Virus record (IMG/VR): IMGVR_UViG_3300047157_000171
DNA length: 64,000 nt
Source: a virus
Reading direction: 5' to 3' (one strand)
Shown: positions 10,949 through 46,108 of the stretch, in pieces
Layout of the letters: every line of letters begins with the position of its first letter
Numbering within the stretch: the stretch's first letter is position 1
The notes under the pieces: model-generated
The model's input: the letters and a program-made list of their open reading frames with translations, nothing else
What the model was told of the DNA's origin: nothing
The model's database searches: none
Made by a program: the position numbers and the translations under genes

Positions 10949-11554
10949 TTACTTAACGTTTCTAACGTCTGTTATTTTTCCTATGAACATAGAGTCACCA
11001 ACTCTAATTTGTAGATTCTCACTAATTTCTTTATTAGACTCCATTAACTTATTTAACTTAGATTCTACGATATCATCTAAAGTCTCTGTAATGGCTTCTT
11101 TAATGAAACTCTTTAACTCTTCATTTAAGTTAAGTGAAGTAGTTTGTCTTTGTATTGGTTGTGTTGGTTGAGGTATTTTTTGTGCTCCTGAAGTGAACTT
11201 AGATTGTTCCTCCATTTTCTTAGCAACCTCATCTATAAAATCAGACGATAAGTTATTTTCAAAATTAACGGTAGGAATTGGATTCTCTAACATTAATTGT
11301 TTGATGTTGTCAGGTAAGTTTGAACCTTTAATTTTATCTTCTGACATATTACTTTTAACATCTCTTTGTGTTCTGTTAGAACTAACCGGTGTTTGTTGAG
11401 GAGATGGTTGTTGAGGAGAGGATTGTAAATTGTTTGTGTCCTGAGATAACATAGACGCATCAACATTACCTGTTGTGTACGATTTATTATCAACCTTAGA
11501 CATAACTTGTTTAGCTGCTAATAATGAGTTTTGTAACTTTTCGAATCCTTCCAT
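10949..11554 (-). CDS. hypothetical protein (likely start MEGFEKLQ at 11554)
   Basis: The ORF-track N-terminus overlaps the WYL gene; a TATTTACT motif variant lies at 11568-11575, just upstream of the internal ATG. Confidence 0.7.
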   Translation of the reverse strand: MEGFEKLQNSLLAAKQVMSKVDNKSYTTGNVDASMLSQDTNNLQSSPQQPSPQQTPVSSNRTQRDVKSNMSEDKIKGSNLPDNIKQLMLENPIPTVNFENNLSSDFIDEVAKKMEEQSKFTSGAQKIPQPTQPIQRQTTSLNLNEELKSFIKEAITETLDDIVESKLNKLMESNKEISENLQIRVGDSMFIGKITDVRNVK

Positions 11555-11591
11555 AATACTATTTTTTAGTAAATATAAGTAACTTTTGTAA

Positions 11592-11969
11592 TTAGTCAAA
11601 CTTTGCAATCTCAAAAACTTGAGACATGTGCTTATCCCCTTTTGGGTTAAAATACGGTCTAGGCGTTTCAAAAGTGTCGTTAGTTGGTGAACTATTAGTT
11701 ATTTTATCTAATCTAAATAATCTCCACCCTGGTTGGTTTTCAGGGGTATCACTCGACCCTCTAACTTGCCAAGCCCTTAATACAACGTTTCCTGATACAT
11801 TATGAGGACCAAAGGCAACAGGTTCGATTTCCCTATAACCTTTATTAATCGTTTGGTCACCTGCGTAAAAAATAGTGATAACTTTTTTGTTACGTATTGC
11901 GTCAGCGATAGTATCACGACTAACGGCCTCTTTAATAATTAAAGATTTAAGTGACTGTATTAGTTTCAT
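11592..11969 (-). CDS. stand-alone WYL-domain protein
   Basis: 'ITIFY......YREIEP....G...LRAW......WRLFRLDKI' is the WYL-domain pattern. Confidence 0.85.
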   Translation of the reverse strand: MKLIQSLKSLIIKEAVSRDTIADAIRNKKVITIFYAGDQTINKGYREIEPVAFGPHNVSGNVVLRAWQVRGSSDTPENQPGWRLFRLDKITNSSPTNDTFETPRPYFNPKGDKHMSQVFEIAKFD

Positions 11970-12355
11970 TAGAAATTAGGATATTCGTTTGATGGTCCAT
12001 ATTGATTAGTCGACGTATTACTACCTCTGGTTAAAATATCAGTGGTCCCACCAATAGTGTTAGTTTGTCCTTTACCAGCCTCATCACCATCTGATAGTGC
12101 GTTAGGATGAGAAGAACCATAAGAGTTAGAATCGTTATATTCGTTACTATTAACTAATGTTTGCCTTGTTAGTATATCAGTCGAACTACCTGTTGTGTTA
12201 GTTAACCCTTTACCAGCTTCGTCACCGTCTGACAGTGCGTTAGGGTGGGTAGAACTATATTCATCACTCTCAGTACCGTCGTAGGTGTTTGAGGTCATCA
12301 AAGCAGTTCTTTGTTGATTTGCGATTTCTGTTAGTTTTTCGTTTGCGTTTGACAT
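11969..12355 (-). CDS. hypothetical protein with internal 46-aa tandem duplication
   Basis: HPNALSDGDEAGKG.TNT.G..TDILTR occurs twice, 138 nt apart. Confidence 0.8.
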   Translation of the reverse strand: MSNANEKLTEIANQQRTALMTSNTYDGTESDEYSSTHPNALSDGDEAGKGLTNTTGSSTDILTRQTLVNSNEYNDSNSYGSSHPNALSDGDEAGKGQTNTIGGTTDILTRGSNTSTNQYGPSNEYPNF

Positions 12356-12366
12356 ATTCTTTTTAT

Positions 12367-12374
12367 TATAAATA
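12367..12374 (-). promoter_or_regulatory. putative late promoter TATTTATA
   Basis: Motif just upstream of 12355; it recurs before structural genes on both strands. Confidence 0.6.
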
Positions 12375-12812
12375 TTACTTAATTAGTTTATGGTATCTTT
12401 TAATACTTTCAGATAACCTACTTACGTCAACAGAAGGTACTTGACCGTTCTTTTCATGTGACTTTCTATACGCATTACTTTTACCCGGTGTTAAATCAGC
12501 AGCTCTTTGTGCGGATTTTTTCTGTTGTTCAATTTCTTTTCTAGCGTTGTCTAATGTATTATTAACCCACTTATACATAACCTCACCACCGTTAAGATTA
12601 AATGAATCAGAATTTTCTTCTTGGTTAATGTTTTTAAAGTCGTATTTTAATCTCTTAAGTTGTTGATATGTCATAACCCTTTCTTCAACCAATCTACGTA
12701 AACGTTTCATTCCTTCACCTTTAACGTGACTCATTTTCTTTAAAGTCTCGTTTAAGTGTTTAACAATGTTGTTCGGTATTTGAAATTCTTTGTTATGTAA
12801 TTTACGATTCAT
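12375..12812 (-). CDS. basic hypothetical protein
   Basis: 145-aa ORF in a late-motif operon; ends in 'LSESIKRYHKLIK'. Confidence 0.7.
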   Translation of the reverse strand: MNRKLHNKEFQIPNNIVKHLNETLKKMSHVKGEGMKRLRRLVEERVMTYQQLKRLKYDFKNINQEENSDSFNLNGGEVMYKWVNNTLDNARKEIEQQKKSAQRAADLTPGKSNAYRKSHEKNGQVPSVDVSRLSESIKRYHKLIK

Positions 12813-12814
12813 TA

Positions 12815-13543
12815 CTACTTAAGTTTGTTAATGATATATTTTTTATCTTCGTCAGATAAATCTATTAAAAATTTTAATTTTCTATCTAATATTGGATTTG
12901 GTTCAGATTCGACATCGTCTTCCTCTTCTATTGTTGGTTCTAAAATGTCTTTAGGTGAATCTTTTTTAGATATTACCGAATCAACATATTCTTCAATCTG
13001 ACCTTTAGTCATCTTTTCGATAAGTCTTACCTTATCTTCTGATGATGGGATATAACCCATTTTTTCTAATCTTTCTTTAGCATCGATTTCCTCGAAGTCT
13101 AATTCGTCCATAAAATACTTTAACGCCTCTTCATAAGATGCGTTCTTACCCATTGTTTCTTCAAACCCTAAGGAATCGTCCATTTCTGACTCACCCCAGT
13201 ATCTTCTCATATAATGTCCTTTTTGGAATGGAGGTTGAGAGGTTGCACTTACTTGCGCATCAGAGGTCTTTCTAGCGGTAACGCTTTTAGCCCTAATATC
13301 TTTAGGTATTTTTGATGTCGGGATTGACCCGTCAAAATCTACAATTTCTTCAATTTCTTCTTCAGTTGCCTTTTCAGGTAACTTTTTGAAGTTTGTATCT
13401 TTAGCAAATTCATCAGCCATTTTACACCATTTCTTCTTTTCTTTTTTTGAAAGTGAATCGTCATTACACTTTGCAAAGAAGAATTTTTGTTGTTTTTTTG
13501 ACTCGAATTTCTCTAATACTATCTGTTTTAATCTTTGGTCCAT
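12815..13543 (-). CDS. hypothetical protein
   Basis: 242-aa ORF preceded by TATTTATA (minus strand, 13561-13568). Confidence 0.75.
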   Translation of the reverse strand: MDQRLKQIVLEKFESKKQQKFFFAKCNDDSLSKKEKKKWCKMADEFAKDTNFKKLPEKATEEEIEEIVDFDGSIPTSKIPKDIRAKSVTARKTSDAQVSATSQPPFQKGHYMRRYWGESEMDDSLGFEETMGKNASYEEALKYFMDELDFEEIDAKERLEKMGYIPSSEDKVRLIEKMTKGQIEEYVDSVISKKDSPKDILEPTIEEEDDVESEPNPILDRKLKFLIDLSDEDKKYIINKLK

Positions 13544-13599
13544 AGATAAAATTCTTTATTTATAAATATCAAACAACTTTAAAGATATTTATTATTATC

Positions 13600-15048
13600 A
13601 TGAGTATAACAAATAAATATCAAAATTCAGGTTCTGAACTAGGAATAAACCTAAATAAAGGGTATTTCTACGATGTTACACCACAAGTAAAAAATATAAC
13701 AAATATGAATTTATTGTATAGTAATCGTCTTTTTGATGATAAATTAGCGATAGATGTAAACCCAAACGATAGGGAAATCCTTTACATTAGTGATACAACT
13801 ATCCCACAATCTATGATGGCAAACTTCGTAGGTAAGGATGGTTTTGATAACAATCTTTTTTATAGATATCACTTTAAACAACCAGGAAAACAAGTTTTTC
13901 AAAATATAATGCCATGTGGATGGACATTTGAAACTGTAATGAACTTCGATAATAAAGATATGACTGATTTTAGTGTGTTTTATTATTTAGGTGTTGGATT
14001 TGAAAAAGAATTGATAGACGGAGAATTGGTGGACACATCAAGAAGTTACAAAAAAGATTATTTACACAACAATATTGCGTTTGGTTTTGATAAGAACAAA
14101 AGTATTGTTGTTCGTTCAGCAAGATACACTGAGGAGTGTTATGGTTGTGATGAAGAAGAAAAGAACTATTCTTCAACTGCATGTGGTGGGGATAGTAGTG
14201 TAACAGTTACTTCAGGTAATTTAGTTACGGGTTCTACGTTATACGAACATTCGTTTGATAAAGCGATATGTAGTGATGATAATACTAACTTTTTAGTTAC
14301 TGTTAAGTTTGAGAGAGACTCGAGTATCATTAATAATATGTGTACAGAATTAGGGACTAAGTTTGTAGAATCAGAATCAGAACGAATTGGTACTTTAAAG
14401 GTCTACGTTAATGGGTTATTATATGGTTCAATATATGGTTTTGAAGATATTGTTACTCGTAGAGCTAGTTTACCTGTTCATGAATTTGTACAGGGTTGGG
14501 GTTTTTCAGATAACTTCTTTATTAGTGAAGATTATAATATGTTTGGAACATTTGAAGGTAAACAACCAAGAGGTAGATTTCACTCAAACCCATTGTCTTT
14601 ATCTGAAATAAGACACAATTACAAACAATTAAAGGATTGTTATGACATTATTGGTTGTTTTGATTTAAACTGTGGTCCTACGTTCCCTGAAAAGGTGATT
14701 GAAGAGTGTCCAAATAGTAAAACTGATGAGACTACGCCAATATCGACTACAACAACAACTGAAGAAATAACAACAACAACGTCTACAATGGAAGAAGTTA
14801 CCACAACTACGACAAATGTAGACCCAACTGATACAACAGAACCACCCATCTGTAATCCATTTGAGGTGAATGGTTATTACCCATTGTATTTAACACAAGA
14901 CTGTGCTGAACGACACGTTGGTGGTAACGGTCAATTTCATACTCACGATTTTGGAGACCCAATGGTGACATATTATATGCCAAATGGTTTAAATATGGAC
15001 CCTAATAATGGTTTAGTAACAATGTGGCACGGTAACTATACGACTTAG
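13600..15048 (+). CDS. virion-associated beta-sandwich (LamG/ConA-like) protein with Thr-rich linker and His-containing C-terminal domain
   Basis: 'WTFETVMNF', 'LKVYVNG' strands; TTTTT-rich segment at about 14720-14850; late motif at 13586-13593; followed by a BppU-like gene. Confidence 0.5.
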   Translation: MSITNKYQNSGSELGINLNKGYFYDVTPQVKNITNMNLLYSNRLFDDKLAIDVNPNDREILYISDTTIPQSMMANFVGKDGFDNNLFYRYHFKQPGKQVFQNIMPCGWTFETVMNFDNKDMTDFSVFYYLGVGFEKELIDGELVDTSRSYKKDYLHNNIAFGFDKNKSIVVRSARYTEECYGCDEEEKNYSSTACGGDSSVTVTSGNLVTGSTLYEHSFDKAICSDDNTNFLVTVKFERDSSIINNMCTELGTKFVESESERIGTLKVYVNGLLYGSIYGFEDIVTRRASLPVHEFVQGWGFSDNFFISEDYNMFGTFEGKQPRGRFHSNPLSLSEIRHNYKQLKDCYDIIGCFDLNCGPTFPEKVIEECPNSKTDETTPISTTTTTEEITTTTSTMEEVTTTTTNVDPTDTTEPPICNPFEVNGYYPLYLTQDCAERHVGGNGQFHTHDFGDPMVTYYMPNGLNMDPNNGLVTMWHGNYTT

Positions 15049-15072
15049 TAATTAATTAATATATTTAATAAT

Positions 15073-15417
15073 ATGGAACATTTTATAAAACAACATTCAC
15101 AGGAACCAATTTTATCGGTTACGTTATATAACGACGAAAAATTCTTTAAAGAACCTTTTGGTGATAGAATTGAGAATTCTATTATTACTTTTAATATGGT
15201 TGATGAAAAAGGGGCGTATAAAATATTAAACGGTGAGTGTGACTTAATTTTTGAAAATGGTGACTACTCTATCATATATCCTTTTACCAAGTCAGATACT
15301 AAAAAAATTGGGGAATATAAAGGAGAATTTAAAATACAATTCTTAAACGACACGTACAGAGTGTCTACTGAAACCATACTTCCAATAAAAGAAGAATTAA
15401 TCGTCTCAATTATTTGA
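15073..15417 (+). CDS. BppU-like / baseplate-associated Ig-like domain protein
   Basis: 'IKQ.S..P.L...L....ITFNM...YPFT..DT...G.Y.GEF.I.F' pattern. Confidence 0.55.
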   Translation: MEHFIKQHSQEPILSVTLYNDEKFFKEPFGDRIENSIITFNMVDEKGAYKILNGECDLIFENGDYSIIYPFTKSDTKKIGEYKGEFKIQFLNDTYRVSTETILPIKEELIVSII

Positions 15418-15443
15418 TAATTTACCAAGTTTTCGTATCTTTG
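15413..15443 (+). promoter_or_regulatory. Bacteroidota housekeeping-sigma promoter upstream of DNA polymerase
   Basis: TTTG (15413-15416), N19, TATCTTTG (15436-15443): exact match to the TTTG-N19-21-TAnnTTTG consensus. Confidence 0.75.
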
Positions 15444-15485
15444 TTTTGAATGTCAAAGAGTAATCTCACCATTGTGTGAGAGACA

Positions 15486-18356: not shown

Positions 18357-18390
18357 AAAAAGAAACCCATCAATTACGATGGGTTTTTTT
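18355..18390. terminator. bidirectional intrinsic terminator between convergent genes
   Basis: AAACCCATC-aattac-GATGGGTTT hairpin flanked by an A-run and a T-run. Confidence 0.8.
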
Positions 18391-18409
18391 AATTCGATGA
18401 TACTCTAAA

Positions 18410-19519
18410 TTAAATTGCGTTGAATGGTCCTTGGAATGGTCTGTAAGAAAGAGTCTTATTAAGGTTTTCCGCCTCACTTGCTCTTCTTTCTAACATCTTA
18501 TCAGGACGTAATCTTTCTAATCTTGCTTGTAGTTCTTCGATTAGTTTCATTTTTTCGTCTTTACCTTCAGTAAGTAATGAATCGTATTCTAAACTTAATT
18601 CCGAATCAGGAACTTTTAAGTTTCCACCAAACTTACCTCTAACACGACCCAAAGCTTCTTTACACGTCGCGATAAAGTATTTTCTTACCCAGTTTTGACC
18701 AGGTTTATTTAATGTCTCCCATGTCATATCTTCTGTTTCAACATCAGAAGGTAATTTAATAACGTCAGGATTATCTTTCATACATGCCTTTCTATCTTCA
18801 GTGTCGTAATACCAATACCATACTTTTGATTGGTTTAGTGATTTTGAACCAAAATCAAACCTACCACCTGGTACGTTCAATAAATGAATGAATTTACCAC
18901 CATCAGGTGCTGCGGTAACTCTATATGTTAAATCACCACCGATAATTCTATTTTTTAAGTTACGGTCCTGCATCCTTAGTAGAATGTCAAAGGCTGGCAT
19001 CATAAAGTATGACCCCATAATACCCATTTGTGCGAATCCACCACCACCTCCGATACCTGTACCACCAAAACCACCAAAACCACCCATAAAAGGGTCGATA
19101 AGTGACTCATTAAGTTCAGCACGGTTAAACCAAAGTAGTTCGTTTAATTCACGTCCTTTTGGTATGTGATACATTTGTTGACCTTCCTCTAATTGGATAA
19201 AGTCTTTTTGTAATACCCAATCACCGCCTGTCTGTAAACCAACAATCTTTGAGTATGCGTATGTATATTGTGTTTCGTAATCCATACTTCGAGTTGTAAA
19301 TGCTCTCGACAATGATTGTTCGTCAACATTTAATCCGTTTAACGAGGTCCATTGTGATTCAATCAACCAATCCTGTATGAATTGTTCATATTCACCTAAA
19401 GAAATTTCCAACAAAGAATCCATTTGGTCGTCATCTAATTCGATTGAACGAATAGGTGCTCCCAACAAGTGCATTGTTTGTTTGTATAATTTACCTTTAT
19501 TTTTTGAGTTTATAACCAT
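18410..19519 (-). CDS. neck / head-tail adaptor protein (T4 gp13-like)
   Basis: N-terminus 'LLGAPIRSIELDDDQMD.LLE.SL..Y' resembles gp13 'LGAP.I.I.VDD.Q'; TATTTATA upstream (19532-19539). Confidence 0.7.
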   Translation of the reverse strand: MVINSKNKGKLYKQTMHLLGAPIRSIELDDDQMDSLLEISLGEYEQFIQDWLIESQWTSLNGLNVDEQSLSRAFTTRSMDYETQYTYAYSKIVGLQTGGDWVLQKDFIQLEEGQQMYHIPKGRELNELLWFNRAELNESLIDPFMGGFGGFGGTGIGGGGGFAQMGIMGSYFMMPAFDILLRMQDRNLKNRIIGGDLTYRVTAAPDGGKFIHLLNVPGGRFDFGSKSLNQSKVWYWYYDTEDRKACMKDNPDVIKLPSDVETEDMTWETLNKPGQNWVRKYFIATCKEALGRVRGKFGGNLKVPDSELSLEYDSLLTEGKDEKMKLIEELQARLERLRPDKMLERRASEAENLNKTLSYRPFQGPFNAI

Positions 19520-19555
19520 TATCTCTTTTATTATAAATATCTTTACTTCGGTTAT

Positions 19556-20800
19556 TTACTTAATCAGTTTAAGTAAGTTTCTAATGATATTAATATCTTC
19601 ATTCAGTTCTGTCACACCTGTTTGGAAAGCGATACCACCATCGCGTACGACATATTTACCATTTTCAGGAAAACACAGATTCGAAAGTGCGACGATATAC
19701 GACCCATCTTTAGGGTGTTTTCCGAAAACAATATAATCGGTTGTATATCTTTTAGCCTGTCCCACACCATGTATGATTGTTGAATTATTATCTAATGTAA
19801 CACCAGTAAAAGGTTTTATTTGTATTGTGTGTGTAATTTCTTCAGGTACGGTTTCATATGTGATAGCGTCTACCCCATCAACCATATCTTCTCCAACACC
19901 TGAACCACCTAATTTTTTAATGTTTAATCCGTTGAATAGAGGGCAATTTGTTAATAACTCAACAGTTTCTTCTTCTGTCTTATCACCTTTAGCGGATGTT
20001 ACACCGATTATTCTCTCAACTATTGATTTATATAGTTCACCGTCTTCTGATAGAATTGATAAGAGATTACTTCTATAAAATTGTTTAAGTTCGTAATATA
20101 TCCCACTTGTTGGTCTCCACAAATCAACACCCATTTCCTCAATAAGTTTAGCCATAACGATGTAGTTGGTGTTTATTCTATTTAAGGTATGATGCCACTC
20201 ACCATCTTTGGTCCACACTCCTTTTTTGTATCTACCGTTGTCGTCTTTCTCTCCGTACCACCTTTTTTTAGGTGAATAAACATACTCTAAGGCTTTATTT
20301 AAAAAGACTCTCCAATCACTGTTATAACCCTTTCCGTAAGTACTCATAATATCACGAGCAATATCAACTGATTTTCTCTCAGGACTTCTTAAAATTGCCG
20401 GTTTGATATAATTGATATAATAAAAACCCTCCTCTAAAAATAATGACTTATACTCACGCCTAATTAAATTTTTAACTTCAACTAATAATAAACCAGCATC
20501 TTTATTTAAATCGGCTGAGGATAAATCTAATAACACAGACATTACTTTGTGGTCAGTATTTATTCTATTTAGTATTTGATGCCATTCACCATTAGAGTCT
20601 AAAACCCCCGTGGGTGTGTCGGCACCACTTGATTCTTGCCATCTATCTAATGGTTCGTATATGTGTTTTAAAACTTTGTTTATAAACACCCTCCATTCTG
20701 ATTTAGGCCCATTACCGTATTGTGTTACTATATCCTTAGATTTTACTAACGATTTCTTAACATCGTATTTTTCCATTATAAGCATGCTTAAATTTTTCAT
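19556..20800 (-). CDS. PD-(D/E)XK-like nuclease with duplicated N-terminal domain
   Basis: Two repeats with a 127-aa period (WRVF.NK.L...Y.P..RW...G.W...GEWH..LNRINT); C-terminal 'E....DMVDGVD....IQIKP'. Confidence 0.55.
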   Translation of the reverse strand: MKNLSMLIMEKYDVKKSLVKSKDIVTQYGNGPKSEWRVFINKVLKHIYEPLDRWQESSGADTPTGVLDSNGEWHQILNRINTDHKVMSVLLDLSSADLNKDAGLLLVEVKNLIRREYKSLFLEEGFYYINYIKPAILRSPERKSVDIARDIMSTYGKGYNSDWRVFLNKALEYVYSPKKRWYGEKDDNGRYKKGVWTKDGEWHHTLNRINTNYIVMAKLIEEMGVDLWRPTSGIYYELKQFYRSNLLSILSEDGELYKSIVERIIGVTSAKGDKTEEETVELLTNCPLFNGLNIKKLGGSGVGEDMVDGVDAITYETVPEEITHTIQIKPFTGVTLDNNSTIIHGVGQAKRYTTDYIVFGKHPKDGSYIVALSNLCFPENGKYVVRDGGIAFQTGVTELNEDINIIRNLLKLIK

Positions 20801-20866
20801 ATTATCCTTTTTATATAAATACCGTAAAAATATTAAACCCCATATTTCAAATCATATTAAAATAAG

Positions 20867-20898
20867 TTTGTAGTAATAGAATATTTTACTTATCTTTG
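20867..20898 (+). promoter_or_regulatory. Bacteroidota housekeeping-sigma promoter
   Basis: TTTG (20867-20870), N20, TATCTTTG (20891-20898), in a divergent intergenic gap upstream of 20935. Confidence 0.75.
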
Positions 20899-20934
20899 TA
20901 GTATAATAATAAGAACCATAAAAAAATAAATAAT

Positions 20935-21699
20935 ATGTCTACAGTTTACTCTTTCATCAGCGAATACAACGGAAACAATTCTTTCTTAAACTCTTTAAAG
21001 ACGGGATACGCAAAGTATGGCCGATTAACACCATCACAGTTGTCAGCGGCGGACAGAGTAATCACAAACATTCGTGAAAAAGTTAAATCAATGGCACCAA
21101 TCGAAGTTCGTAAGAATATCGAGCAAATTATGGATTACAAAGGGGATAATAAGTTCGTATTAGACCTTAAAGCTAAGTACGAAAAATACGGGAAACTAAC
21201 CGAGAAACAAATCGACGCAGGTTTGAAAGTTGTAAACCGTAAGGTTCAGAACAAAATGGCAAAACCTTTACGTTTACCTAAGACTGAAACAATTGTAGTT
21301 GGTCAAAGAACGGGTCGTAGTATCAAAGAAGAGAAGGGATTAGATTTCTTACCAATCCAAATTGATGTATCTCACATAATCGGTGTTTCTCGTAAAGCGG
21401 TTCATTTGAGAGGGAAACTATCTACTGTTGTTGGTTCTGTATGTCGTTGTTGTGGTAGAAAATTAACTGATGAGTTGTCAAAACTTACAGGTATGGGTAG
21501 AACATGTGCCAAAAACACCAATGTACCATACGTTAAAAACACGGACGACCTTGAGCGTTTTATGGAAGACTTAAAGGTTCGTGTAGATGAAATTGGAGAA
21601 TTTGATTTTTGGATTCCTAAATCACAAATTATCGAGTGGAAAGGAATTTACAAAGCAATGGCAAAAACAAGTTTCAGAACTTATGTGGTTACTTCTTAA
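20935..21699 (+). CDS. DUF6011 zinc-finger protein homologous to the SNF2 helicase N-terminal domain
   Basis: CRCCGRKLTD..S...GMG..C (DUF6011-like); two 57-aa-period repeats (Y.G.N.F...LK..Y.KYG.LT..Q); WIPKSQII near the C-terminus. Confidence 0.7.
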   Translation: MSTVYSFISEYNGNNSFLNSLKTGYAKYGRLTPSQLSAADRVITNIREKVKSMAPIEVRKNIEQIMDYKGDNKFVLDLKAKYEKYGKLTEKQIDAGLKVVNRKVQNKMAKPLRLPKTETIVVGQRTGRSIKEEKGLDFLPIQIDVSHIIGVSRKAVHLRGKLSTVVGSVCRCCGRKLTDELSKLTGMGRTCAKNTNVPYVKNTDDLERFMEDLKVRVDEIGEFDFWIPKSQIIEWKGIYKAMAKTSFRTYVVTS

Positions 21700-22297
21700 G
21701 TTTAATGATAATCTCGTCCCCTTTTCTTTTAATACTAAAGGAATCGGGGGATAGGTTTTTGTAGTAGTCTTCATACATTGAAAACTCATCTGTTGTTTTA
21801 CTATTTTTAGATTCTTTTAGAGGTGTAATCACTTTTTCGCTCATCTCCTGAATCTCCACTTCGCTGACATCGTAACTTCTAACATCCCTCTCTATCAACT
21901 CTAATTCGTTCCACTCTGAATCTTCAAGAATTCTTTTTTCTATGTCCTCTTTGGAATAACCTTCAAGGGTACCTTCATAATAATCTGTGCCATACCCACT
22001 CCACATAACTTCAGCTCCTACCTCAAATCGTTTAAGTTTTGGTTCTTTAATGAAATTTTCGTCATTTACGTTTAACGTTGGGGATAATTGAAAGCTAGCA
22101 ATCGCTTTGTTAACTAATCCTTCCTCTTGCCATTGAAACCCAAACTGTCTTGCGTATTTTCTAATCGATGATACTATTTTCTCGGGGTCATCACTAAAAT
22201 TATGATATTTAGATGATAACACTCTAGAAACAAAAACAAGAAATTGGTCATATTTAACCTCTGTTATTTCTTCCGTAATACGTTTTCTTAAATTCAT
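21689..22297 (-). CDS. hypothetical protein
   Basis: 202-aa ORF with TATTTATT upstream (22316-22323); leader MNLRKRITEEITE. Confidence 0.7.
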   Translation of the reverse strand: MNLRKRITEEITEVKYDQFLVFVSRVLSSKYHNFSDDPEKIVSSIRKYARQFGFQWQEEGLVNKAIASFQLSPTLNVNDENFIKEPKLKRFEVGAEVMWSGYGTDYYEGTLEGYSKEDIEKRILEDSEWNELELIERDVRSYDVSEVEIQEMSEKVITPLKESKNSKTTDEFSMYEDYYKNLSPDSFSIKRKGDEIIIKLKK

Positions 22298-22327
22298 TAG
22301 TGTGTGTTGTAAAATAATAAATAGTCA

Positions 22328-24651: not shown

Positions 24652-24652
24652 T

Positions 24653-26232: not shown

Positions 26233-29041
26233 ATGGCAAATTCTAACAGAGTTTTCGTCTCACCAGGAGTATTCACATCAGAAAAAGACTTGAGTTTTGT
26301 TTCTCAAAGCGTTGGTGTATCTACTTTAGGTTTAGTAGGTGAAACAAAAAAAGGTCCCGCATTTGAACCAGTATTGGTTTCGGGTTATAATGGATTCAGA
26401 ACAATGTTCGGTGGTTCTTCACCTGAAAAGATGGGTGAAACATTAAAATACCCACTTCCGTATTATGCAAAATCATACCTATCTCAATCATCACAATTAT
26501 TTGTGACAAGAGTATTGGGTTATTCAGGTTATGATGCAGGTTCGGCACATTCGATAAAAACTATCGCTGGTGTTAATACAACAACAATAGGACAATCAAA
26601 TTCACTTAAAGCGGATTTTGTTATTGAACTTAATAGTGGTTCTTTAGATATCGCTGGTTTAGGTCAATTAGAAACAGATTATCTTAATACTGAATTTGAA
26701 TCAAATGCAGGTGTTACTACAAGTTTCTTAGATTTCGTAAACTTAAACCTATCAGAAGATAAGGTAATGGTTATGGGTCCATATTATAATACATTCGATT
26801 GGAACGCTATTGGTGTTGATGATACGGATAAAGTTGTTTATCCAATGTCAGACTCTAAATGGGCAGACCAAATAGAATTTACAGGAACAAATGAAAGCGG
26901 ATTAGCGTTTTACGCAAGTAAATTCGACGACGCGGGGGTTATTAAAGTACAGATTGTGGTTATGGAATTAGATGTCGTAAGATTTTCAGAGTTTCATAAT
27001 AAGACAATTGCTATATTACGTTCAAGAGCGGAATATACAGGTGACGATTTAAACTTCAAATTAAACAGTAATATTACGATTACTAGTGATGTGGTAAACG
27101 ACAATGCTTTAGCTGACTTTGATTTATCATTCACATCAGCGGCAGGAGTACACAGTTTTACGTGTAACTTATCACCATCATCTAAGAAATTTATAACTAA
27201 AGTGATTGGTGAATCAGCGTTTGATAAAAACCCTGATGATTATCCTGTTTATGTTGATAAGGTTTATGACAATTATTTAAATTGGTTAATCGCAACAGGA
27301 AAAATTAAAGGATTATATACAGGAACTTTAGATAGTGTAAATGAGGGTGGAGACTTTAAGTCGAAATATACATCATCATATACTCCATATGTTGTTTCTG
27401 AAGTAAGAGGTGGTTTTGTGTCTAACTTATTTAGATTCGCAACGATTTCAGACGGAGACGCATCAGCAAGAGAGGTTAAGATTTCTTTTGTAAACATTTC
27501 AATTGAAAAACAAGAGTTCGATATCATTGTTAGAGATTTCTTCGATACGGATGCAAGTCCAATCGTTTTAGAAAAATTCTCAAGATGTTCTATGAATCCA
27601 GACGTACCAGGTTACGTAGCGAGAAAAGTAGGTACATCTGATGGTGAGTACGAATTAAAATCAAGTTATATTATATTAGAATTATCTGATGACGCACCGA
27701 TAGACGCGGGTACCATCAGGATTTAGAGGTTACGAGGTTAAAGATTATAACTTCGCTTCATCTTCTAACGCAAGTATTAACTATAAAAACGAATACTACA
27801 CTGCAGGACAGGTTATCGGTATAGATAATGATGGTAATGATATTGTGGTAAATTCAGATAAAGTAAGAAAAACATATTTAGGTGTTTCTAACACAGTTGG
27901 TTTTGACCCGTCATTCTTTGAATTTTCAGGTGATTATCAAGGTGTTGAATTACTTAAAGGTTTCCACCTTTCATCACAAGCTAACGGAGTTGAGTTTGTT
28001 AAAACTAATGAAAACTTTGAGTTATCAGAAGGAAACTTTGAAAAGTTAGTTGGTTGTAAATTCACAATAGCACCTGTGGGTGGTTTTGACGGATTTGATA
28101 TCTTTAGAAAAGAAAGAACTAACGGTGACCAATATATAAAAGGTAAATCACCATATGCGAACGCAGGGTTTGACCCTTACGTTGGTAACTCTGATTACTA
28201 TGCGTTCTTAGACGGTATTAGAACATACGCTAACCCTGAAGCAGTAGATATTAACTTATTCTCAACACCAGGTCTTAACTTCTTTGACAATTCATCTTTA
28301 GTTGGTGAAGCAATCGACATGATTGAAGAAGAAAGAGCTGATTCATTATACGTAATTGATTCACCAAACAGGTCATCAGTAGATGAGATTGTAGGTGACA
28401 TTGAAGACATAGGTTTTGATTCTAACTACTCAGCAACATATTGGCCTTGGATTCAGGTGAGAGACACTGAAAATTCAGTTCAGGTATACGTGGCACCAAC
28501 AGGTGAGGTATTAAAGAACATCGCGTTAACAGACAACGTGGCATATCCATGGTTCGCATCAGCGGGTTACACAAGAGGTTTAGTAAATGCAATCAAAGCG
28601 AAAAAGAAATTAACATTAGATGAAAGAGATGAATTATATGTTAATAGAATTAACCCAATAGCAACATTCTCAGACGTAGGTACGATTATCTTCGGTAACA
28701 AAACATTACAAGTTAGAGAATCGGCATTAGACAGAATCAACGTAAGAAGATTATTACTACAAGCAAGAAAACTTATTTCAAACGTGGCGGTAAGATTATT
28801 ATTCGAACAGAATGATGAAGTTGTAAGAAACGAATTCTTAAGTTTAGTTAATCCAATTTTAGAAAACATAAAAAGAGAAAGAGGTTTAACAGAATTTAAA
28901 GTTGTATTGTCATCTTCACCAGAAGATATGGATAGAAATCAGTTATCGGGTAAGATATACATTAAACCAACAAGAGCTCTTGAATTCATTGATATTGAAT
29001 TCTTAGTAACACCAACAGGAGCATCTTTTGAAAATATTTAA
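26233..29041 (+). CDS. tail sheath protein (gp18-like), about 935 aa, split by one extra G at 27708-27710
   Basis: SPGVFTSEKD N-terminus; C-terminal 'PWFASAGYTRG', 'INPI..F...G..IFGNKTLQ..ESALDRINVRRLL', 'IYIKPTRALEFI.IEF'. Removing one G joins both ORFs (…DAVPSGFRGYEVKDY…). Confidence 0.9.
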
Positions 29042-29051
29042 AAAATTATAG

Positions 29052-29075
29052 AGGGGAGGGTTTCCTCCCCTTTGT
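29052..29075 (+). terminator. hairpin/terminator after the sheath gene
   Basis: AGGGGAGG-gttt-CCTCCCCT followed by a short T-run. Confidence 0.6.
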
Positions 29076-29086
29076 ATGTATAATAT

Positions 29087-29938
29087 ATGAAACAAACATT
29101 AATAGAATCAGAAATTAAAAGACTTATGGAAATCATGAGTGTTGAGGTGTCTGAAGGTTTTAACGAAGAGGGTTTACCTGATTTTAAGTATTACGCATTT
29201 GATTGGGATGATAACCTAATGTATATGCCAACTGAAATTATGGTGAAAAGTTTTGGAGACCAAGAAATAGGTATGGGTACTGCAGATTTTGCTGAGTACA
29301 GAGGACAGATAGGAAAAGAAGATTTTGACTATAAAGGTCATACTATAGTTGGTTTTGCTGAAAATCCTTTTAGAAATTTCGGTGTAGATGGAAATGACCA
29401 ATTTGTTAAAGACGCTATGATTGCTAAAACAGGTCCTTCATGGAATGACTTTATAGAATGTATTAACGGAGGTTCAATATTTTCTATTATCACGGCAAGA
29501 GGACATAACCCTGAGACATTAAGAGAGGGTGTGGAAGCTATTGTTAAAGACGGTAAGGGTGGTTTATCATTCGAATCGTGCGTGGAGTCACTTAAGAAAT
29601 ATAAAGGTGTTATAGACGGGGATGGTGAAGAATTATTCCAAGAATATTTAGACCTATGTAGATTTCATCCTGTTTCACACGGAGCGGGTAGTGCTGCTAA
29701 CCCTGAAGAAGAAAAAATTAAGGCATTAGAATTATTTATTAAACACGTTAATTCTTTATCTGAAGAATTGGCGGTTACGATGGAGTTAGAAAATGACATC
29801 AAAAATAATTTTGTCCCGATGATTGGGTTTTCTGATGATGATAAAGCTAATGTCGACAATGTAAAAAAATACTTAGACGACAAAGGAGAAGAAAATGTCA
29901 ACGTGTATTACACTAAGACTGATAAAACAAAGATGTAG
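29087..29938 (+). CDS. HAD-superfamily phosphatase with intact motifs
   Basis: FDWDDNL (motif I), IITARGH (II), 'EEEKIKAL' (III), GFSDDD (IV). Confidence 0.75.
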   Translation: MKQTLIESEIKRLMEIMSVEVSEGFNEEGLPDFKYYAFDWDDNLMYMPTEIMVKSFGDQEIGMGTADFAEYRGQIGKEDFDYKGHTIVGFAENPFRNFGVDGNDQFVKDAMIAKTGPSWNDFIECINGGSIFSIITARGHNPETLREGVEAIVKDGKGGLSFESCVESLKKYKGVIDGDGEELFQEYLDLCRFHPVSHGAGSAANPEEEKIKALELFIKHVNSLSEELAVTMELENDIKNNFVPMIGFSDDDKANVDNVKKYLDDKGEENVNVYYTKTDKTKM

Positions 29939-38173: not shown

Positions 38174-38178
38174 AAATT

Positions 38179-38496
38179 ATGCAGTACTACGATAGATATT
38201 CTGAATTTCATTTTAACGGAGAACACAAAGTTGTTCCGGCGATTAATCTGAATAAAAAAGGTTCTGATGTTGTTGTTACCTATAAAAAGGGTGTTTCAAG
38301 ATTGGATAAATTTTCACAACAATATTACGGGACACCGTTCTTTAATTGGTTAATATTACAGGCAAACCCAAAATATGGTGGTTTAGAGTGGAATATTCCG
38401 GATGGTGATACTATAATTATACCATTCCCTTTGGTCCCAACTTTAGAAGAGTATAAGACAAAGGTAGACGAATATTACTACTACTATGGCAGATAA
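38179..38496 (+). CDS. LysM-like baseplate protein (gp53 / tail protein X-like)
   Basis: 'YKKGVSRLDKFSQQYYG.P...WLILQANP.......IP.G..I.IP'. Confidence 0.8.
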   Translation: MQYYDRYSEFHFNGEHKVVPAINLNKKGSDVVVTYKKGVSRLDKFSQQYYGTPFFNWLILQANPKYGGLEWNIPDGDTIIIPFPLVPTLEEYKTKVDEYYYYYGR

Positions 38497-41400: not shown

Positions 41401-44177
41401 ATTGACAAACTTAACAGGGTTATTAATGATGTTGAATTTGAGGTTGGGGGAATACAAGGGTATATTGATTCGGGTAAACTAGTTATTAAAAAAATAGGAA
41501 ACATTGTAACAACAGATTCTAGTCAAAGTATTGATTTGTATAGGTGTTATTATATAACAGAGGAAGGGATTATTAGATTACCTTCATACTCAGGACCTAT
41601 CACCCCTATTAGTGAAAATAAAATACCTGTGTTGGTTAACCGTTCAGTGTCAGAAGATTGGGACGGTCAGTTTGATAAAGGTGTGTTTGAAGATTTACCG
41701 TTCTCAACAGTAAGTAGACCAAAAACCGATGAGCATGTCATTAACAGTGAGGGTACACATTGTCATTGTCTTATGGTCATATTGAAAGTTTAGTGTCGTT
41801 GTTTAGTTATGAAACGTTAGAAAAGTTTAAAACAATGTTTATGGACTTTGCTAAGAGAAAATCAGACAACAATGTGGGGTCTTATGAGAATTTCTACTAT
41901 GAGTTATTAAAGTCGGATACCGAGTTAGAGGAGTCATTTGTAAAAAACAACATAGAAAACATTTCAAAAAATAAGGGTTTAATTGATGTTATTAAAATAT
42001 CGTTTGATAAAGCAATAGATGTAAAACTTTCGGTATTATCATCATATGTTGATAGTTTTGTAAAAGAACCGATTAAGTTTGCTGAGTTTAAAACAATCGC
42101 AATGGACGACAATTTATTCTTTAAGATAAATGGGTCTGTTAGTAGTGAGTTTGTTAATGGTGTAAGAAAAAGTTTTTTCGAGTTATCGGACATCGCACCT
42201 ACAGAACAAAACTTCAAGGACTTTAAGGGTATTATTAATGTATGGGCGGAATGGAAGTTATCGAACCCAAGTGGTGATATAGATGGGTTTAAGAGTTCTT
42301 TATTACCTACATTGACAGGTTTCATAGGTAAAATAGACGGGTATATTGACAATATATTCAAAAACTTTAGTGAGTTAATAAATGCCGAGGACGGTAACAG
42401 TGCATTGGAAAAAAGTGCTAGTGATATCTCAGGGGTTGAGTTACAGAAAATTACTTACCGTATATTAAAGAATATTAATGATACATGGATTGGTGGGTTC
42501 GATTGGGATAAGGCTAACTTAGCTAAGTTATTTAAATATCTTAATTACCTTAACGAACCAATAGGTGATAAGTTCCTTATGGATGTTAGAGTATTGAATA
42601 AATATTTTAATGAGTCAAATAAGGGAAAACCTATCGCGTCATTTATATCGATGATATTAAAAGATAATGCGTTATCAGAACCAATGTCATTTGCATCAAA
42701 TGTGAATTTCTACGGTAATTTAACTAACGCGGCTGAAAATATTAAAGACGCACAGAAATTAGCCAATGATGTGTTTGGTACACATACAACGGTTAATAAA
42801 AACGGATTACCTGGTTTTGTTGTGTTCTTTAGGTCAAACGAGTCCGAGTACTTAAACATTAAAAAACCAAACTTCAAATACGGTAGTGACGGTTTTGACA
42901 TTGCGGTTAAGAATCCAATATCGGATAAACCCACAGATGTAAAACAATTGAGAGAAGGTAATCGTGGAGTTGCGTTTAATGTTGACTTTGGAATTCAAAA
43001 CCAAAATATGTTTACAGATTTTAGTATTGAATCTTATGATGGGGTTAAATCGGGTGAAGAACTTATTGTTACTGAGAACATTGCCAATATGAGAAAAGGG
43101 ACCACTGCGTCTTCTATTTCTACAAACTTATTGGATGTTATGAAAACGAGAGTTTATCAGTGTTCTATCAAAATGATGGGTAATGCGATGATACAACCGT
43201 TTATGTATTTCAACTTAAGATATATACCGATATATTCAGGAACTTATTTTATTCTATCTGTCGAACATACACTTTCACCAGATTCAGGAATGATTACGAC
43301 GTTTAAGGGTGTAAGAATATCTAAGGCTAGTGTTTCTAACATCGATAAAGGGATGGTAAAAGCACGAAGAAATTTATTAGACAATTTAATAGAAAAATTA
43401 GTAACTAAGAAAAGGGCTACCGAACTTACAAAACCTAATGTTTATGGTGGTGATACTGAAAATCAAGGAAATACGAGTGTTAAACAAACTGCGGACGTTG
43501 GTTGTGTGGTTTCAAACTATTGGACTAATAACGGTAAGAATCCAATACCTAAGTATGATATACCAAACAGTCCTACGAGATTGACTGATTCAGAACTTAA
43601 AGGATTAATAGAGACGGCTGCTAGTCAGTTACCTAATTATAGTGATACTGTTAAGAATGGATTAATGGCAATGACATTTACGGTCTCTAAGAGAGAACAG
43701 GGTAGAGGTAACGGTGTAAGGTTCTTATACGATAACCCATTCGGATTACACTTAGACGGTGGTGGTCAGAGTACCTTTAGAGAGGAAATTAAAGGGTATT
43801 TCTGTCCTTCGACTAGTGATGGATATGCTAGGTCTACGGCAATATTCCATGATGTAAGTAAAGAAGAAAAGGTTGAAGATGGTATTGTAAGCGCATATAA
43901 AGCATTTATGAAGTCAATGAAGAAACGTGGGGAAACTTATTACGGAGCGAATCATTGGGAAAGTGAGAACTCCGCAAACCCTGAATATTTAGCTAGTTTA
44001 TGGGCGTTCTATTGGAATACTAGTTACAAAGCGATTAAAGATGAAGGGGATACGAAAGGTAACTTAATAAGTGAGTATGACAATGGTATGGTATCGTATA
44101 AGAATGGTACTAACAAAGACTATTCAGATGAGTTTGATACCTTTACTAAGTACAACGCTACTTTTAATAAACTATAA
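38486..44177 (+). CDS. baseplate hub protein (gp27/gp44-like), about 1900 aa, with C-terminal lysozyme-like domain; split by missing bases at 41341-41346 (T) and 41751-41753 (G)
   Basis: N-terminal 'LLGIKDIKI...ITIRMVDVRGRALF'; hub C-terminal 'MMGNAMIQP.MYFNL..IP.YSG.Y.I.SVEH.L....M.T.F.G.R'. Adding one base at each run joins the three ORFs in frame. Confidence 0.7.
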
Positions 44178-44225
44178 AACCTGATATTTTAATATTTGGT
44201 TATATTTATATATAAACACATTATT

Positions 44226-44432
44226 ATGGAAAATAATAAATTACAAAACGCATTAAATCAGTTTTTAGGTAGAAACGTTGTTGTTGAAGACAAAGGTGAC
44301 TATCAAGAAGTATGTGATTTACAAACAGGTGACTGTTACACTATCAGAACAAAAGACGGTTTAATCGAGAGACAAACAAGATTAGATAAAAAATTTATAA
44401 CTGAGGACGGTAGAACGTTACTTAGAGGGTAA
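44226..44432 (+). CDS. small hypothetical protein (likely start MENNKLQ)
   Basis: TATTTATA at 44203-44210 lies inside the ORF-track N-terminus, supporting the internal ATG. Confidence 0.7.
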   Translation: MENNKLQNALNQFLGRNVVVEDKGDYQEVCDLQTGDCYTIRTKDGLIERQTRLDKKFITEDGRTLLRG

Positions 44433-44443
44433 TATTATATATT

Positions 44444-45151
44444 ATGAAAAAAACACAAGAAGAGCTTCTTAACGAGGAGTTAAGTAGGTTTATGTCTATC
44501 AACAAATATGTTGGTACTATTAACGAACAAGAGTTAGGTGGTGAAGAGGAGGTGTCTACTGAATTACCAACAGGGTTGGATACAGAGACTCCTGAATTAG
44601 AGGACGAGGTTGAAACAGAAGATGAAGTATCAACTGAAGAACCAGGTGGTGGTTTGGATGATGCGTTATCGACTACTGAGGAATTACCTATGGGTGATGA
44701 AGAGGAGTTAGAAACAACAGAAGATTCAGATACTGAAGAAGTAGATGTTACTGATTTAGTTGACGGACAAAAAGAATTAGAGGAAAAATTTAAATCAACG
44801 GAAGAAAAGATTAGTCAATCGGTTGAAAAAGTTGATGGAGTATTTTCTAAGTTAGATGACTTAGAACAAAAAATGGGTGAATTGGATAAGTTATATAATG
44901 CGATTGACGACTTAGGTGATAAAATCGAACAAGCTAAACCAAAAACCCCTGAACAAAAATTAGAATTACGTTCATTAGATTCATACCCTTACAATCAGAA
45001 ATTAACAGATTTCTTTGATGATAAGGAAGTTGAAATGGATGTGACAGGTAAGGATGATTATGTATTAACATCTGATGACGTTAAAAATATGTCAGAAAAA
45101 GATGTTAAGGATTCATTCGTAGCACCTGATGAGGTTGAGGAAAACGACTAA
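44444..45151 (+). CDS. highly acidic coiled-coil protein (possible head scaffold/core protein)
   Basis: Glu/Asp/Thr-rich; leader 'ELLNEELSRFMSIN'; heptad region 'SKLDDLEQKMGELDKL'. Confidence 0.5.
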   Translation: MKKTQEELLNEELSRFMSINKYVGTINEQELGGEEEVSTELPTGLDTETPELEDEVETEDEVSTEEPGGGLDDALSTTEELPMGDEEELETTEDSDTEEVDVTDLVDGQKELEEKFKSTEEKISQSVEKVDGVFSKLDDLEQKMGELDKLYNAIDDLGDKIEQAKPKTPEQKLELRSLDSYPYNQKLTDFFDDKEVEMDVTGKDDYVLTSDDVKNMSEKDVKDSFVAPDEVEEND

Positions 45152-45172
45152 GAAAAAAACAATCTAAATATT

Positions 45173-45202
45173 AAAAGGGGTACGAAAGTGTCCCTTTTTT
45201 TT
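45173..45202 (+). terminator. intrinsic terminator
   Basis: AAAGGGGTAC-gaaa-GTGTCCCTTT followed by a T-run. Confidence 0.75.
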
Positions 45203-45223
45203 ATTCTTTATATATTTATTAGT

Positions 45224-46108
45224 ATGGATATTAGAGAAACTATTAAAGAGGATTTGGCCGTTTGGTTCGGGACTAAGAAAAAACCGAAAGGAAGTAAACA
45301 ACCAAAAGGACCATGGGTTAATATTTGTAAAAAGAAAAAGGGAGGTGGACACCCACCTTGCGGTCGTTCAGATGATGACGGTGATGGGAAAAAAGATGGT
45401 GCTTATCCTAAATGTAGAGCAGTCCATGTCGCGTCCAAAATGTCAGATGATGCCAAAAAAAAGGCATGTGGACAAAAAAGAAGGGCTGAAAAGAAAACCC
45501 CTAAAACGGGTAAGGGTAATAAACCTACAATGGTATCCAACAAAAACTTAAAAGAAAATATGTCAAAGACAGTTAAGATTACAGAAATAGAACTATATAC
45601 TATAGTTGAAAATGTTATAAAAGAACAAAAAGAAAAATTATCAAAGTTTGATTCGGTATCGGATATCGCTGAATGGTCTAAAATAGTCTCACAATTTTCA
45701 GGTGACGATTTTAGGTTTGTAGAATATAAAAGATTTAGAGCCGCGACTGATAGTGATGGTGAGTATTTAGCTCATTGGGACCATAAATTAGGAATGGGGT
45801 TCTTTGATGAGATGGATTTAATCCCTGAAGATAGTTTAGAAGGATTAGGTATTGTTAAAGACGATAAAGAGTACGAGTTTTTTGGTGATTTAAATGAGAC
45901 CGACTTACTTGAAGGTAAGAAAAAAAGTAAAAGTAAAAAATCTAAAAACGCTTTATGTGCGAGAGGTAAGTCAGCGGCTAAGGCTAAGTTTGACGTTTAC
46001 CCGTCAGCATATGCTAACGGATATGCGGTACAGGTCTGTAAAGGTACTATAAAAGGTTTAGACGGTAAAAAAAGGTGTTCAGGTAAATATTGTAAGGGTA
46101 AAAAGTAA
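45224..46108 (+). CDS. basic Cys-rich modular hypothetical protein (likely start MDIRETIKE)
   Basis: TATTTATT at 45213-45220; two Lys/Cys-rich modules flank an acidic middle module. Confidence 0.7.
   Translation: MDIRETIKEDLAVWFGTKKKPKGSKQPKGPWVNICKKKKGGGHPPCGRSDDDGDGKKDGAYPKCRAVHVASKMSDDAKKKACGQKRRAEKKTPKTGKGNKPTMVSNKNLKENMSKTVKITEIELYTIVENVIKEQKEKLSKFDSVSDIAEWSKIVSQFSGDDFRFVEYKRFRAATDSDGEYLAHWDHKLGMGFFDEMDLIPEDSLEGLGIVKDDKEYEFFGDLNETDLLEGKKKSKSKKSKNALCARGKSAAKAKFDVYPSAYANGYAVQVCKGTIKGLDGKKRCSGKYCKGKK

Follow-up and report, generated by a model that had tools for sequence, protein, structure and literature searches.

Do unrelated late proteins of an uncultured giant phage carry a common peptide label that sends them into the head? 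This question is raised by a 64,000-nucleotide stretch of viral DNA (IMG/VR virus record IMGVR_UViG_3300047157_000171), called the window below, meaning the whole 64 kb that were analysed. A preliminary description of positions 10,949 to 46,108 had proposed that a WYL protein, a phosphatase, a nuclease and several basic proteins share short helical tags with I/L-x-E, the motif after which the T4 protease gp21 cuts, and that these proteins are packaged in the capsid and injected with the DNA. The window phage is a distant T4-like jumbo myovirus, uncultured and marine, and is one member of a large clade of such uncultured jumbo phages from marine and freshwater sources. The general idea of portable terminal tags on unrelated late proteins holds in this clade, in which two solid tags, here named tag 1 and tag 2, were found. 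The core of tag 1 is also the C-terminal tail of the phage scaffold and of the gp21-type protease. We predict, with a probability of roughly one half, that both helices load their bearers into the prohead core and that the protease then trims off the label in the manner of T4.

Two portable helices on unrelated proteins

Tag 1 reads L-x-E-[EQN]-[IV]-x-R-[IM]-K-x-[ML]-M and was represented by a 12-residue matrix trained on eight relatives only, with the window as well as all scaffolds and proteases excluded. At a threshold of at least 13 bits, the matrix gave 33 matches in the eight related genomes, as compared with about 1-3 in residue-shuffled proteomes. Although terminal positions make up only 10% of all positions, 31 of the 33 matches are terminal: 18 begin within the first 13 residues and 13 end at most 12 residues from the stop. 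When the tag is stripped off, these proteins and four window members fall into 22 families without detectable mutual similarity. Identical residues of the tag are encoded by different codons in 46% of cases, which indicates that selection acts on the peptide. In 15 of the 18 N-terminal copies, [LI]xE occurs within the next 14 residues (background 25%, p = 3e-7), and in the C-terminal copies, as in the scaffold, L-x-E lies on the N-terminal side of the helix. A 17-residue matrix was dropped because it missed the C-terminal copies, and the 12-residue one was used instead.

Tag 2 was first spotted in a variable region of the relative G006. Its consensus is [IV]-[IK]-[IL]-T-E-S-[QE]-L-K-[KR]-[IL]-[IL]-x-x-[IL]-[IL]-x-E with the core I-I-T-E-S-Q-L-K-K-I-I, and it usually follows directly on M-K-(K). 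Among 1435 proteins of the related genomes there were 86 matches of at least 12 bits, against fewer than one in shuffles. N-terminal copies account for 64 of the 86; they stand on 45 unrelated body families and show 47% codon differences. A second [IL]xE is located at or just past the end of the helix in 56 of the 64 (background 27%). A leader ending at I/L-x-E, as first proposed, is seen with both tags, the specificity of the protease being assumed from its homology to that of T4. Tag 2 opens about 4-5% of all clade proteins, and both tags together are found on roughly 6-8%. The tagged genes cluster in variable regions, for example at 124-141 kb of G006.

Two properties of the data bear on these counts. 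The genes were simple open reading frame (ORF) calls, in which a wrong start could exchange an N-terminal tag for an internal one or the reverse, and orthologues from several genomes inflate the z-scores, so that family counts are given alongside. A Pfam search with ten tagged proteins of relatives returned one domain above cut-off (peptidoglycan-binding) and nothing else, and a literature search for the motif strings found no relevant publication. No tags occur in the extra 25 kb of G012, a 96%-identical contig. Both tags are combined in one protein family of about 500 amino acids (aa), with tag 2 inside the protein and tag 1 at its C-terminus (G005 179062-180603, G006 234029-235510, G004 20491-21981).

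The tagged genes are also linked to a putative late promoter. Of the 16 copies of TATTTATA in the window, 12 are sense-oriented and lie 11-41 nt upstream of gene starts; one is at 20814-20821 on the minus strand, and further sites are at 12367, 13557, 13561, 19532, 26184, 30088, 31672, 44203, 46148 and 55302. The element precedes the sheath, tube, gp25-like wedge and adaptor-like genes, the operons holding genes 12375 and 44444, and gene 19556 (all three discussed below), and no replication gene of the window. It is among the most enriched upstream 8-mers of the clade (18-fold). A gp55-like late sigma factor is encoded at 3688-4464 (minus strand; phrog_234, E 5e-5; 61% identity to the orthologues of G005 and G006). 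The position of TATTTATA before structural genes together with this sigma factor suggests, by association, that it is a late-type promoter. Within 60 nt upstream, TATTTATA is present at 33 of the 64 genes with N-terminal tag 2, compared with 15.5% of all genes (3.3 times as often).

The head module and its C-terminal helices

A gp21-like protease, on which the proposed cleavage would depend, was found beside the Gp23-type capsid gene in every sufficiently long relative. The Peptidase_S77 match (PF03420, gp21-type) has E-values of 1e-22 to 1e-26 and adjoins the capsid gene in G002-G010, G014-G016 and G018. The gene order is the same in all relatives: protease, then an acidic coiled-coil scaffold, then capsid. 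No match to the scaffold was found among cultured phages. It varies in length (388-547 aa), while its last 25 residues are nearly invariant across the 71 loci having the head module, with [LV]-[LI]-[SI]-E, then S-K-[AT]-Y-E-N-P-Q, then F-x-R-M-K-[DE]-L-M-[SG]-K-[IL]-K and the stop. The last residues of the protease are D-[DN]-R-M-K-K-L-M-G-N-L-D-x-F-L, and the shared C-terminal core R-[MI]-K-x-[LM]-M is present wherever its ORF was recovered (about 30 loci), also in L006. In the sublineage of the window (L006; G002, capsid 78%), the scaffold ends in I-[RI]-R-I-K-E-M-M-G-[IV]-[VL]-K, which is the tag 1 core residue for residue.

A matrix built from scaffold tails alone was too narrow, giving the accessory tags only 4-10 bits, and the test was run in reverse instead. 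The tag 1 core matrix, with no head proteins in its training, was applied to the last 25 residues of 1402 non-training proteins. The G002 scaffold ranked 1st among the 1402 C-termini, and proteases ranked 4th, 9th, 11th and 12th. The N-terminal part of the capsid protein aligns with the T4 gp23 propeptide and contains a conserved I-N-E-A 12 residues upstream of the T4 cut position.

Similar helices were seen in two further proteins of the head region. A conserved protein of about 440 aa, encoded upstream of terminase-like and portal-like genes (G002 11518, G006 68038, G007 33512, G008 51694, G009 81466), holds an internal tag-2-like helix, I-x-x-T-E-x-x-H-[KR]-E-x-L-E-x-L-A. Beside the capsid gene of G001, beyond window position 1, lies a gene for a protein of 537-542 aa (L005:2053-3681) that by eye looks like an M23-type peptidase. 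Inside it lies a helix like the scaffold tail, E-E-L-A-K-F-R-K-L-M (10.5 bits), and its C-terminal domain is common with the N-module family of the window protein 45188 described below.

Tagged proteins of the window

The window proteins were scored with tag matrices trained on related genomes only. Three to five of them match where expected, at a terminus, with p from 1e-6 to 3e-6 per position. The only ATG-initiated frame of the window with an N-terminal tag 1 match of at least 10 bits is 44444 (44444-45151, plus strand), which encodes a very acidic protein of 235 aa and scores 15.7 bits. The helix (residues 9-20; 44468-44503, plus strand) is kept in the orthologues of G004, G005 and G006. 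It is followed by I-N-E and then Q (44519-44527, plus strand), a candidate protease site that persists as I-[NM]-E-Q in the orthologues of G005 and G006, whose overall identity is 35-39%. The gene is the second after the TATTTATA at 44203. Since the protein has a long acidic tract followed by a coiled-coil segment, an architecture like that of a scaffold, it is probably a prohead-core or internal protein and not an enzyme.

Gene 12375 (12375-12812, minus strand) encodes a basic protein of 145 aa with a C-terminal tag 1 of 17.4 bits that ends one residue from the end of the protein. The helix opens with L-S-E (12381-12416, minus strand), and the orthologues of G006, G007, G008 and G009 end in the same helix. 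The gene is the second of an operon behind the TATTTATA at 13561-13568, and its product is a candidate internal protein, the best analogue here of a T4 internal protein. HMMER with a 14-residue motif had little power: 12375 (9.3 bits) and 44444 (7.4 bits) were the only proteins to reach or exceed the top score of 50 shuffled proteomes (7.4), and the phosphatase treated below was missed.

The third case is a mosaic basic protein (45188-46108, plus strand) in which an internal tag 2 lies between an N-module and a C-terminal Y-P-S-A-Y-A-N-G domain, the C-terminus matching phrog_27331. Its tag 2 helix (residues 117-134; 45572-45625, plus strand) scores 18.7 bits (p < 1e-6) and starts four codons past an in-frame Met at 45560. 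The homologues of the N-module and of the C-terminal domain are, in G005 and G006, two separate genes adjoining the capsid gene. Chance is ruled out by the matrix scores for the helices of 44444, 12375 and 45572. Acidic 44444, basic 12375 and the tagged module of 45188 are thus the likely clients in the window. The preliminary description had foreseen a diverse set of tagged enzymes; unrelated proteins are indeed tagged, and the two supported members of its list, one acidic and one basic, look like head-core or internal proteins and not like enzymes.

A less certain client is the protein of 414 aa encoded by 19556 (19556-20800, minus strand), which has its own TATTTATA 13 nt upstream. It ends in a tag-1-like helix, L-N-E-D-I-x-I-I-R-N-L-L (19559-19606, minus strand), with moderate support (12.8 bits, p = 3e-6 per position). 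The training genomes have no 19556 orthologue; the gene belongs to an accessory island (19556-20800, 20935-21699 and 21689-22297) that is absent from G005 and G006. The protein consists of two internal repeats of about 90 residues and a C-terminal domain. A 56%-identical variant in G001 keeps the helix, with the Arg not kept. This variant (L004:265-1140) has one repeat and shares its first ten residues and the C-terminal helix with the window protein; its N-terminal L-I-T-E-S equals the first half of tag 2. The label of nuclease given earlier to the 19556 protein is only a lead: its language-model neighbours are restriction-endonuclease- and PD-(D/E)xK-like (scores 0.85-0.86, below the trust level of the tool), and Pfam, PHROG and PDB searches gave no match.

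The phosphatase label fared better, being supported by fold. The product of 29087 (29087-29938, plus strand) is a putative HAD-superfamily phosphatase, and the nearest fold to its AlphaFold2 (AF2) model is the 3'-phosphatase domain of T4 Pnkp. The model has a mean predicted local distance difference test score (pLDDT) of 81 and a predicted template modelling score (pTM) of 0.77. VIA-align of residues 31-283 gave Z 10.1 to 5uj0_B (root mean square deviation 3.6, 132 aligned residues), 9.5 to 1ltq_A and 9.4 to 4xrp_A; the matches following these Pnkp and Pnkp1 3'-phosphatase domains were many HAD hydrolases. Residues D39, D41, T136 and D250-D252 are invariant in 29 homologues. In motif I (DxDxT), which reads D-W-D-D-N, the two Asp are invariant and Asn replaces Thr. 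Sequence searches of Pfam and PDB gave no match, and Foldseek against PDB gave nothing significant.

As a client, this phosphatase is doubtful. Its N-terminal helix (residues 2-22; 29090-29152, plus strand) is a weak tag candidate with 6.9 bits for tag 2 and 4.5 bits for tag 1. The helix has a pLDDT of 48-63, lies outside the HAD fold and is covered by no structural match. HAD homologues are present in hundreds of contigs; their N-terminal helices vary, each ending in [LV]-x-E ahead of a conserved G-F. A gp21-type protease is also encoded in four of five long contigs with a HAD homologue that were tested, and both tags recur in four further T4-like contigs found through these homologues. As a lineage-wide tag, the HAD helix was not above the null in G014, G016 and G017, and G015 had one modest match. 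That the helix is a tag is possible, with the odds somewhat against it. In two distant relatives (G014 131889, L266; G016 112719, L275), the HAD homologue is directly preceded by an ORF of 47-49 aa with a tag-2-like helix at its end, which may be a small gene of its own or an exon-like start missed upstream. The 29087 gene has TATAAT just before its start and no TATTTATA upstream, so its expression may differ from that of the late genes around it. A G+C-rich hairpin followed by T-T-T-G lies in the interval from the sheath to the HAD gene (29045-29086).

The WYL protein (11592-11969, minus strand) was correctly named (PF13280, 23.1 bits against a cut-off of 21.8, E 7.5e-5). As tagged cargo it has to be given up in this phage: relatives of 280-295 aa continue through a Pro/Lys-rich linker and a second domain to a C-terminal tag 1, and the shortened window gene comprises the first 125 aa only and stops after the WYL domain, having lost the tagged half. 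It is part of a late-type operon of five genes on the minus strand (10949-13543; genes 12815, 12375, 11969, WYL and 10949). Tag 1 closes two of these genes in relatives, namely 12375 and the long form of WYL, which suggests that the operon may encode a head-internal set.

All peptides quoted in the preliminary description exist in the genes named there. As a class defined by I/L-x-E, they show no excess over chance in the window. The motif occurs within residues 1-20 of 17 of 61 ORFs (28%), whereas 23.5% are expected from its proteome-wide density, and 15 of 55 proteins have it as compared with 12.4 +/- 2.7 in local shuffles of residues 2-20 (z = 1.0); the helicase (I-P-E) and the small subunit of ribonucleotide reductase (RNR; L-Q-E) are among the proteins with an N-terminal motif. 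Over the eight related genomes, 479 N-terminal [IL]xE were observed against 313 expected (ratio 1.53, z = 10.6), while the control patterns gave 1.10 for [IL]xD, 1.10 for [VM]xE, 0.97 for [IL]E and 1.13 for [IL]xxE; the excess in the clade is specific to spacing 2. The ratio was 1.35 in T4 and 1.27 in Staphylococcus phage K, in which Peptidase_S77 was not found, and part of the excess is thus generic. An I/L-x-E near a terminus is non-specific and by itself cannot identify a tag, and the practical lesson is that tags of such kind are not callable from it.

By the matrices, the peptides of the list were separated into members and non-members. Clear support was obtained for the 12375 C-terminus and the 44444 N-terminus and moderate support for the C-terminus of 19556; the HAD helix is weak, and about half are not members. 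Six of the eleven peptides score at background with both matrices. The unsupported ones are the N-terminal peptides of the WYL protein, of 12815-13543, of the 19556 protein, of 21689-22297 and of 45224, and the internal peptide of 10949. That of 12815-13543 is a conserved part of its protein family. The 45224 peptide likewise belongs to a conserved domain and is no tag; the protein that contains it, 45188-46108, has the other, internal tag 2 described above. Pfam and PHROG gave no match for most of the listed proteins.

The remainder of the window (33% GC, no tRNA genes) is a mixture of T4-type replication and virion genes. The replication set comprises a family B polymerase, an SNF2-type helicase, a gp32-like single-stranded DNA-binding protein, a UvsX-like recombinase, a flap exonuclease, a DnaB/gp41-like helicase and both RNR subunits. 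The virion genes encode tail sheath, tube, baseplate hub and gp25- and gp6-like wedge proteins, and in addition to the late sigma factor there are PhoH, dUTPase and glycosyltransferase genes for regulation and metabolism. A DNA-level search found no cultured phage similar to the window, and the polymerase shares 24% identity with its best cultured match. Window positions 1-41071 have a counterpart of about 95% identity in the IMG/VR fragment G001, which extends 5.2 kb beyond, to a Gp23-family capsid gene (PF07068). Capsid proteins with 62-90% identity to that of G001 are encoded in more than 598 viral contigs. The longest contigs of the clade are 251-287 kb at an estimated completeness of 75-86%, which indicates genomes of about 330 kb. 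The gene order of the window is conserved in G005 and G006 at a protein identity of about 50%. The tail sheath gene is split in the window into two ORFs in different frames (26233-27726 and 27845-29041, plus strand, with a TAG at 27724), while it is a single ORF of 935 aa in the 95%-identical G001 and of 943-945 aa in G005 and G006. The split may stem from a frameshift or an assembly error, or the gene may be broken.

Capsid loading, its rivals and known systems

According to the reading that we prefer, the heads of these phages would be built as in T4 from a Gp23-type capsid protein, an acidic coiled-coil scaffold and a gp21-type protease. The amphipathic helix at the end of scaffold and protease may hold both inside the assembling shell. 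Tag 1 proteins would borrow this tail, a near copy of which stands at the extreme terminus of about twenty unrelated families, and tag 2 would work in the same pathway. Both helices would then be address labels by which their bearers co-assemble into the prohead core, and the head protease would cut the label at the flanking I/L-x-E, like the T4 capsid-targeting sequence. At C-terminal copies of tag 1, a cut at the preceding L-x-E would release the cargo from its label. We infer from this that the helices bind the capsid interior and that packaging, cleavage and injection of the bearers follow. The wider view, which we hold more tentatively and would not call probable, is that the clade loads unrelated, rapidly changing proteins by the dozen, to be delivered along with the DNA, through a small code of protease-releasable helices, one of them copied from the tail of scaffold and protease.

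Several observations weigh against this reading. The head module of the window phage lies outside the window and is taken from L006 (capsid 90% identical, same gene order) and G002. There is no close cultured relative to compare with; the best cultured capsid match is Flavobacterium phage immuto, with 45% identity over half of the protein. Apart from those of the window sublineage, the scaffolds ranked only 50th-105th of 1402 in the reverse test, so their likeness to tag 1 is moderate. The tails of T4 gp21 and gp22 have no such common motif. By BLAST, the T4 gp23 cleavage site aligns to S-F-E-T and not to the conserved I-N-E-A. Because tag 1 opens with L-x-E, a cut there would leave an N-terminal helix in place. 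No counterpart of tag 2 was found in any head protein, and 20 of the 86 tag 2 matches are internal. Finally, the late sigma factor and its orthologues (G005 88882, G006 50056) have a basic helix, [IL]-K-[RK]-[FY]-K-K-[ML]-Y, nine residues from the end, which scores high with the tag 1 core matrix and indicates that such helices can have other partners.

The last three points are those on which the main rival draws. It holds that the labels dock to another hub, such as a chaperone, the sliding clamp or late transcription machinery, a membrane or a host factor, and that the likeness to the scaffold tail reflects a common amphipathic design. In T4 the gp55 tail binds the clamp, and the sigma factor helix might be a clamp-binding tail or a chance look-alike. 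We consider this account unlikely, given that the tag 1 core stands at the extreme C-terminus of both prohead-core proteins, that the T4-type protease motif flanks the tags far above background, that tag 2 genes and structural genes have the same promoter, and that the polymerase C-terminus lacks a tag-like helix. A further account sees in the helices self-association (coiled-coil) or linker elements that arose repeatedly and address nothing. Their heptad-like hydrophobic spacing would fit, as would the copies placed internally between modules and the varied N-terminal helices of the HAD homologues, which are not common to other proteins of the same genome. It is nevertheless improbable, as independent origin would not yield the same 12-18 residues, and near-identical sequences were found on 45 and about 20 unrelated families with codon variation and strict terminal position.

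The two other alternatives concern the list and the DNA. If the list as first given is taken by itself, there might be no system in the window at all, only ordinary amphipathic helices in an AT-rich proteome rich in I/L-x-E. The null enrichment tests in the window, the peptides at background and the excess in the protease-less Staphylococcus phage K all agree with this, and chance is the best account of the unsupported half of the list (it stands for the WYL, 12815, 21689 and 10949 peptides). As a general explanation it has little chance of being right in view of the three to five window proteins that match outside-trained matrices and of the clade excess of [IL]xE, for which the controls were near 1.0. 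The common gene starts might instead be cassette heads at the DNA level, promoter plus first codons, that are spread by recombination and kept for expression. The same promoter does lie directly upstream of half of the tag 2 genes, and the tagged genes do cluster in variable regions. We regard this as very improbable, since codons differ at 46-47% of the identical residues across unrelated families, tag 1 is equally found at C-termini and there are internal copies.

If the tags do load the capsid, they would provide a sequence rule that predicts the injected proteins of uncultured giant phages, which are the first to meet host defences. The phage would recruit cargo by copying its own scaffold tail, which would join the T4 capsid-targeting sequence, scaffold tails and encapsulin-type loading. 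On the wider view, the cargo might range from an RNA-repair-type phosphatase and a nuclease-like protein to WYL proteins and basic proteins that bind DNA, and would form a far larger and more modular pre-loaded kit for takeover or anti-defence than the T4 internal proteins. Short portable peptides of this kind might also serve to package foreign proteins in T4-like heads.

Among known systems, C-terminal capsid-binding tails are found on the HK97 gp4 protease, lambda C/Nu3, the P22 gp8 helix-turn-helix, the 80alpha scaffold and SaPI1 CpmB. The clade resembles them in that one phage's scaffold and protease have a short C-terminal helix in common, which across the 71 loci is the best conserved stretch of the scaffold. 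It differs in that the helix is also present on about twenty unrelated non-head proteins, and also N-terminally, and its binding to the capsid protein is a prediction. Encapsulin cargo-loading peptides are short C- or N-terminal peptides that send unrelated enzymes inside an HK97-fold shell. Here the likeness is an analogy only and lies in the terminal peptide address; the sequences are other ones, and encapsulin loading involves neither protease removal nor DNA packaging.

Propeptide-bearing ejection proteins that are processed by a gp21-like protease are described for phiKZ-like and SPN3US giant phages in the accounts cited (PMC5694885, PMC7411985, PMC10052503). The clade likewise has a T4-type protease in giant phages, and as far as these accounts go, those phages load many head-internal proteins that are trimmed at maturation. 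The cut in phiKZ-like and SPN3US phages follows S/A/G-x-E. To our knowledge, no portable consensus helix shared with the scaffold tail has been reported for them.

The closest comparison is that with T4, in which, in the accounts cited (PMC3012670, PMC9958956; Mullaney and Black 1996, cited there), a capsid-targeting sequence on the internal proteins IPI-III and Alt is removed by the gp21 prohead protease. Common to both are a short N-terminal leader on otherwise unrelated, fast-changing proteins, an end of the leader in I/L-x-E, a protease of the Peptidase_S77 family, late-type expression signals and small basic proteins, in the clade among the candidate clients. Unlike the T4 leader of about 10 residues, the clade tags have 12-18 residues and are of two types; tag 1 stands at either terminus and copies the tail of scaffold and protease, and the tagged share of roughly 6-8% of proteins compares with a handful in T4. 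With the T4 leader M-K-T-Y-Q-E-F-I-A-E, the consensus columns of the tags share only the final Glu. Known as they are from sequence alone, the clade tags are best described as an analogue, and not a homologue, of the T4 leader.

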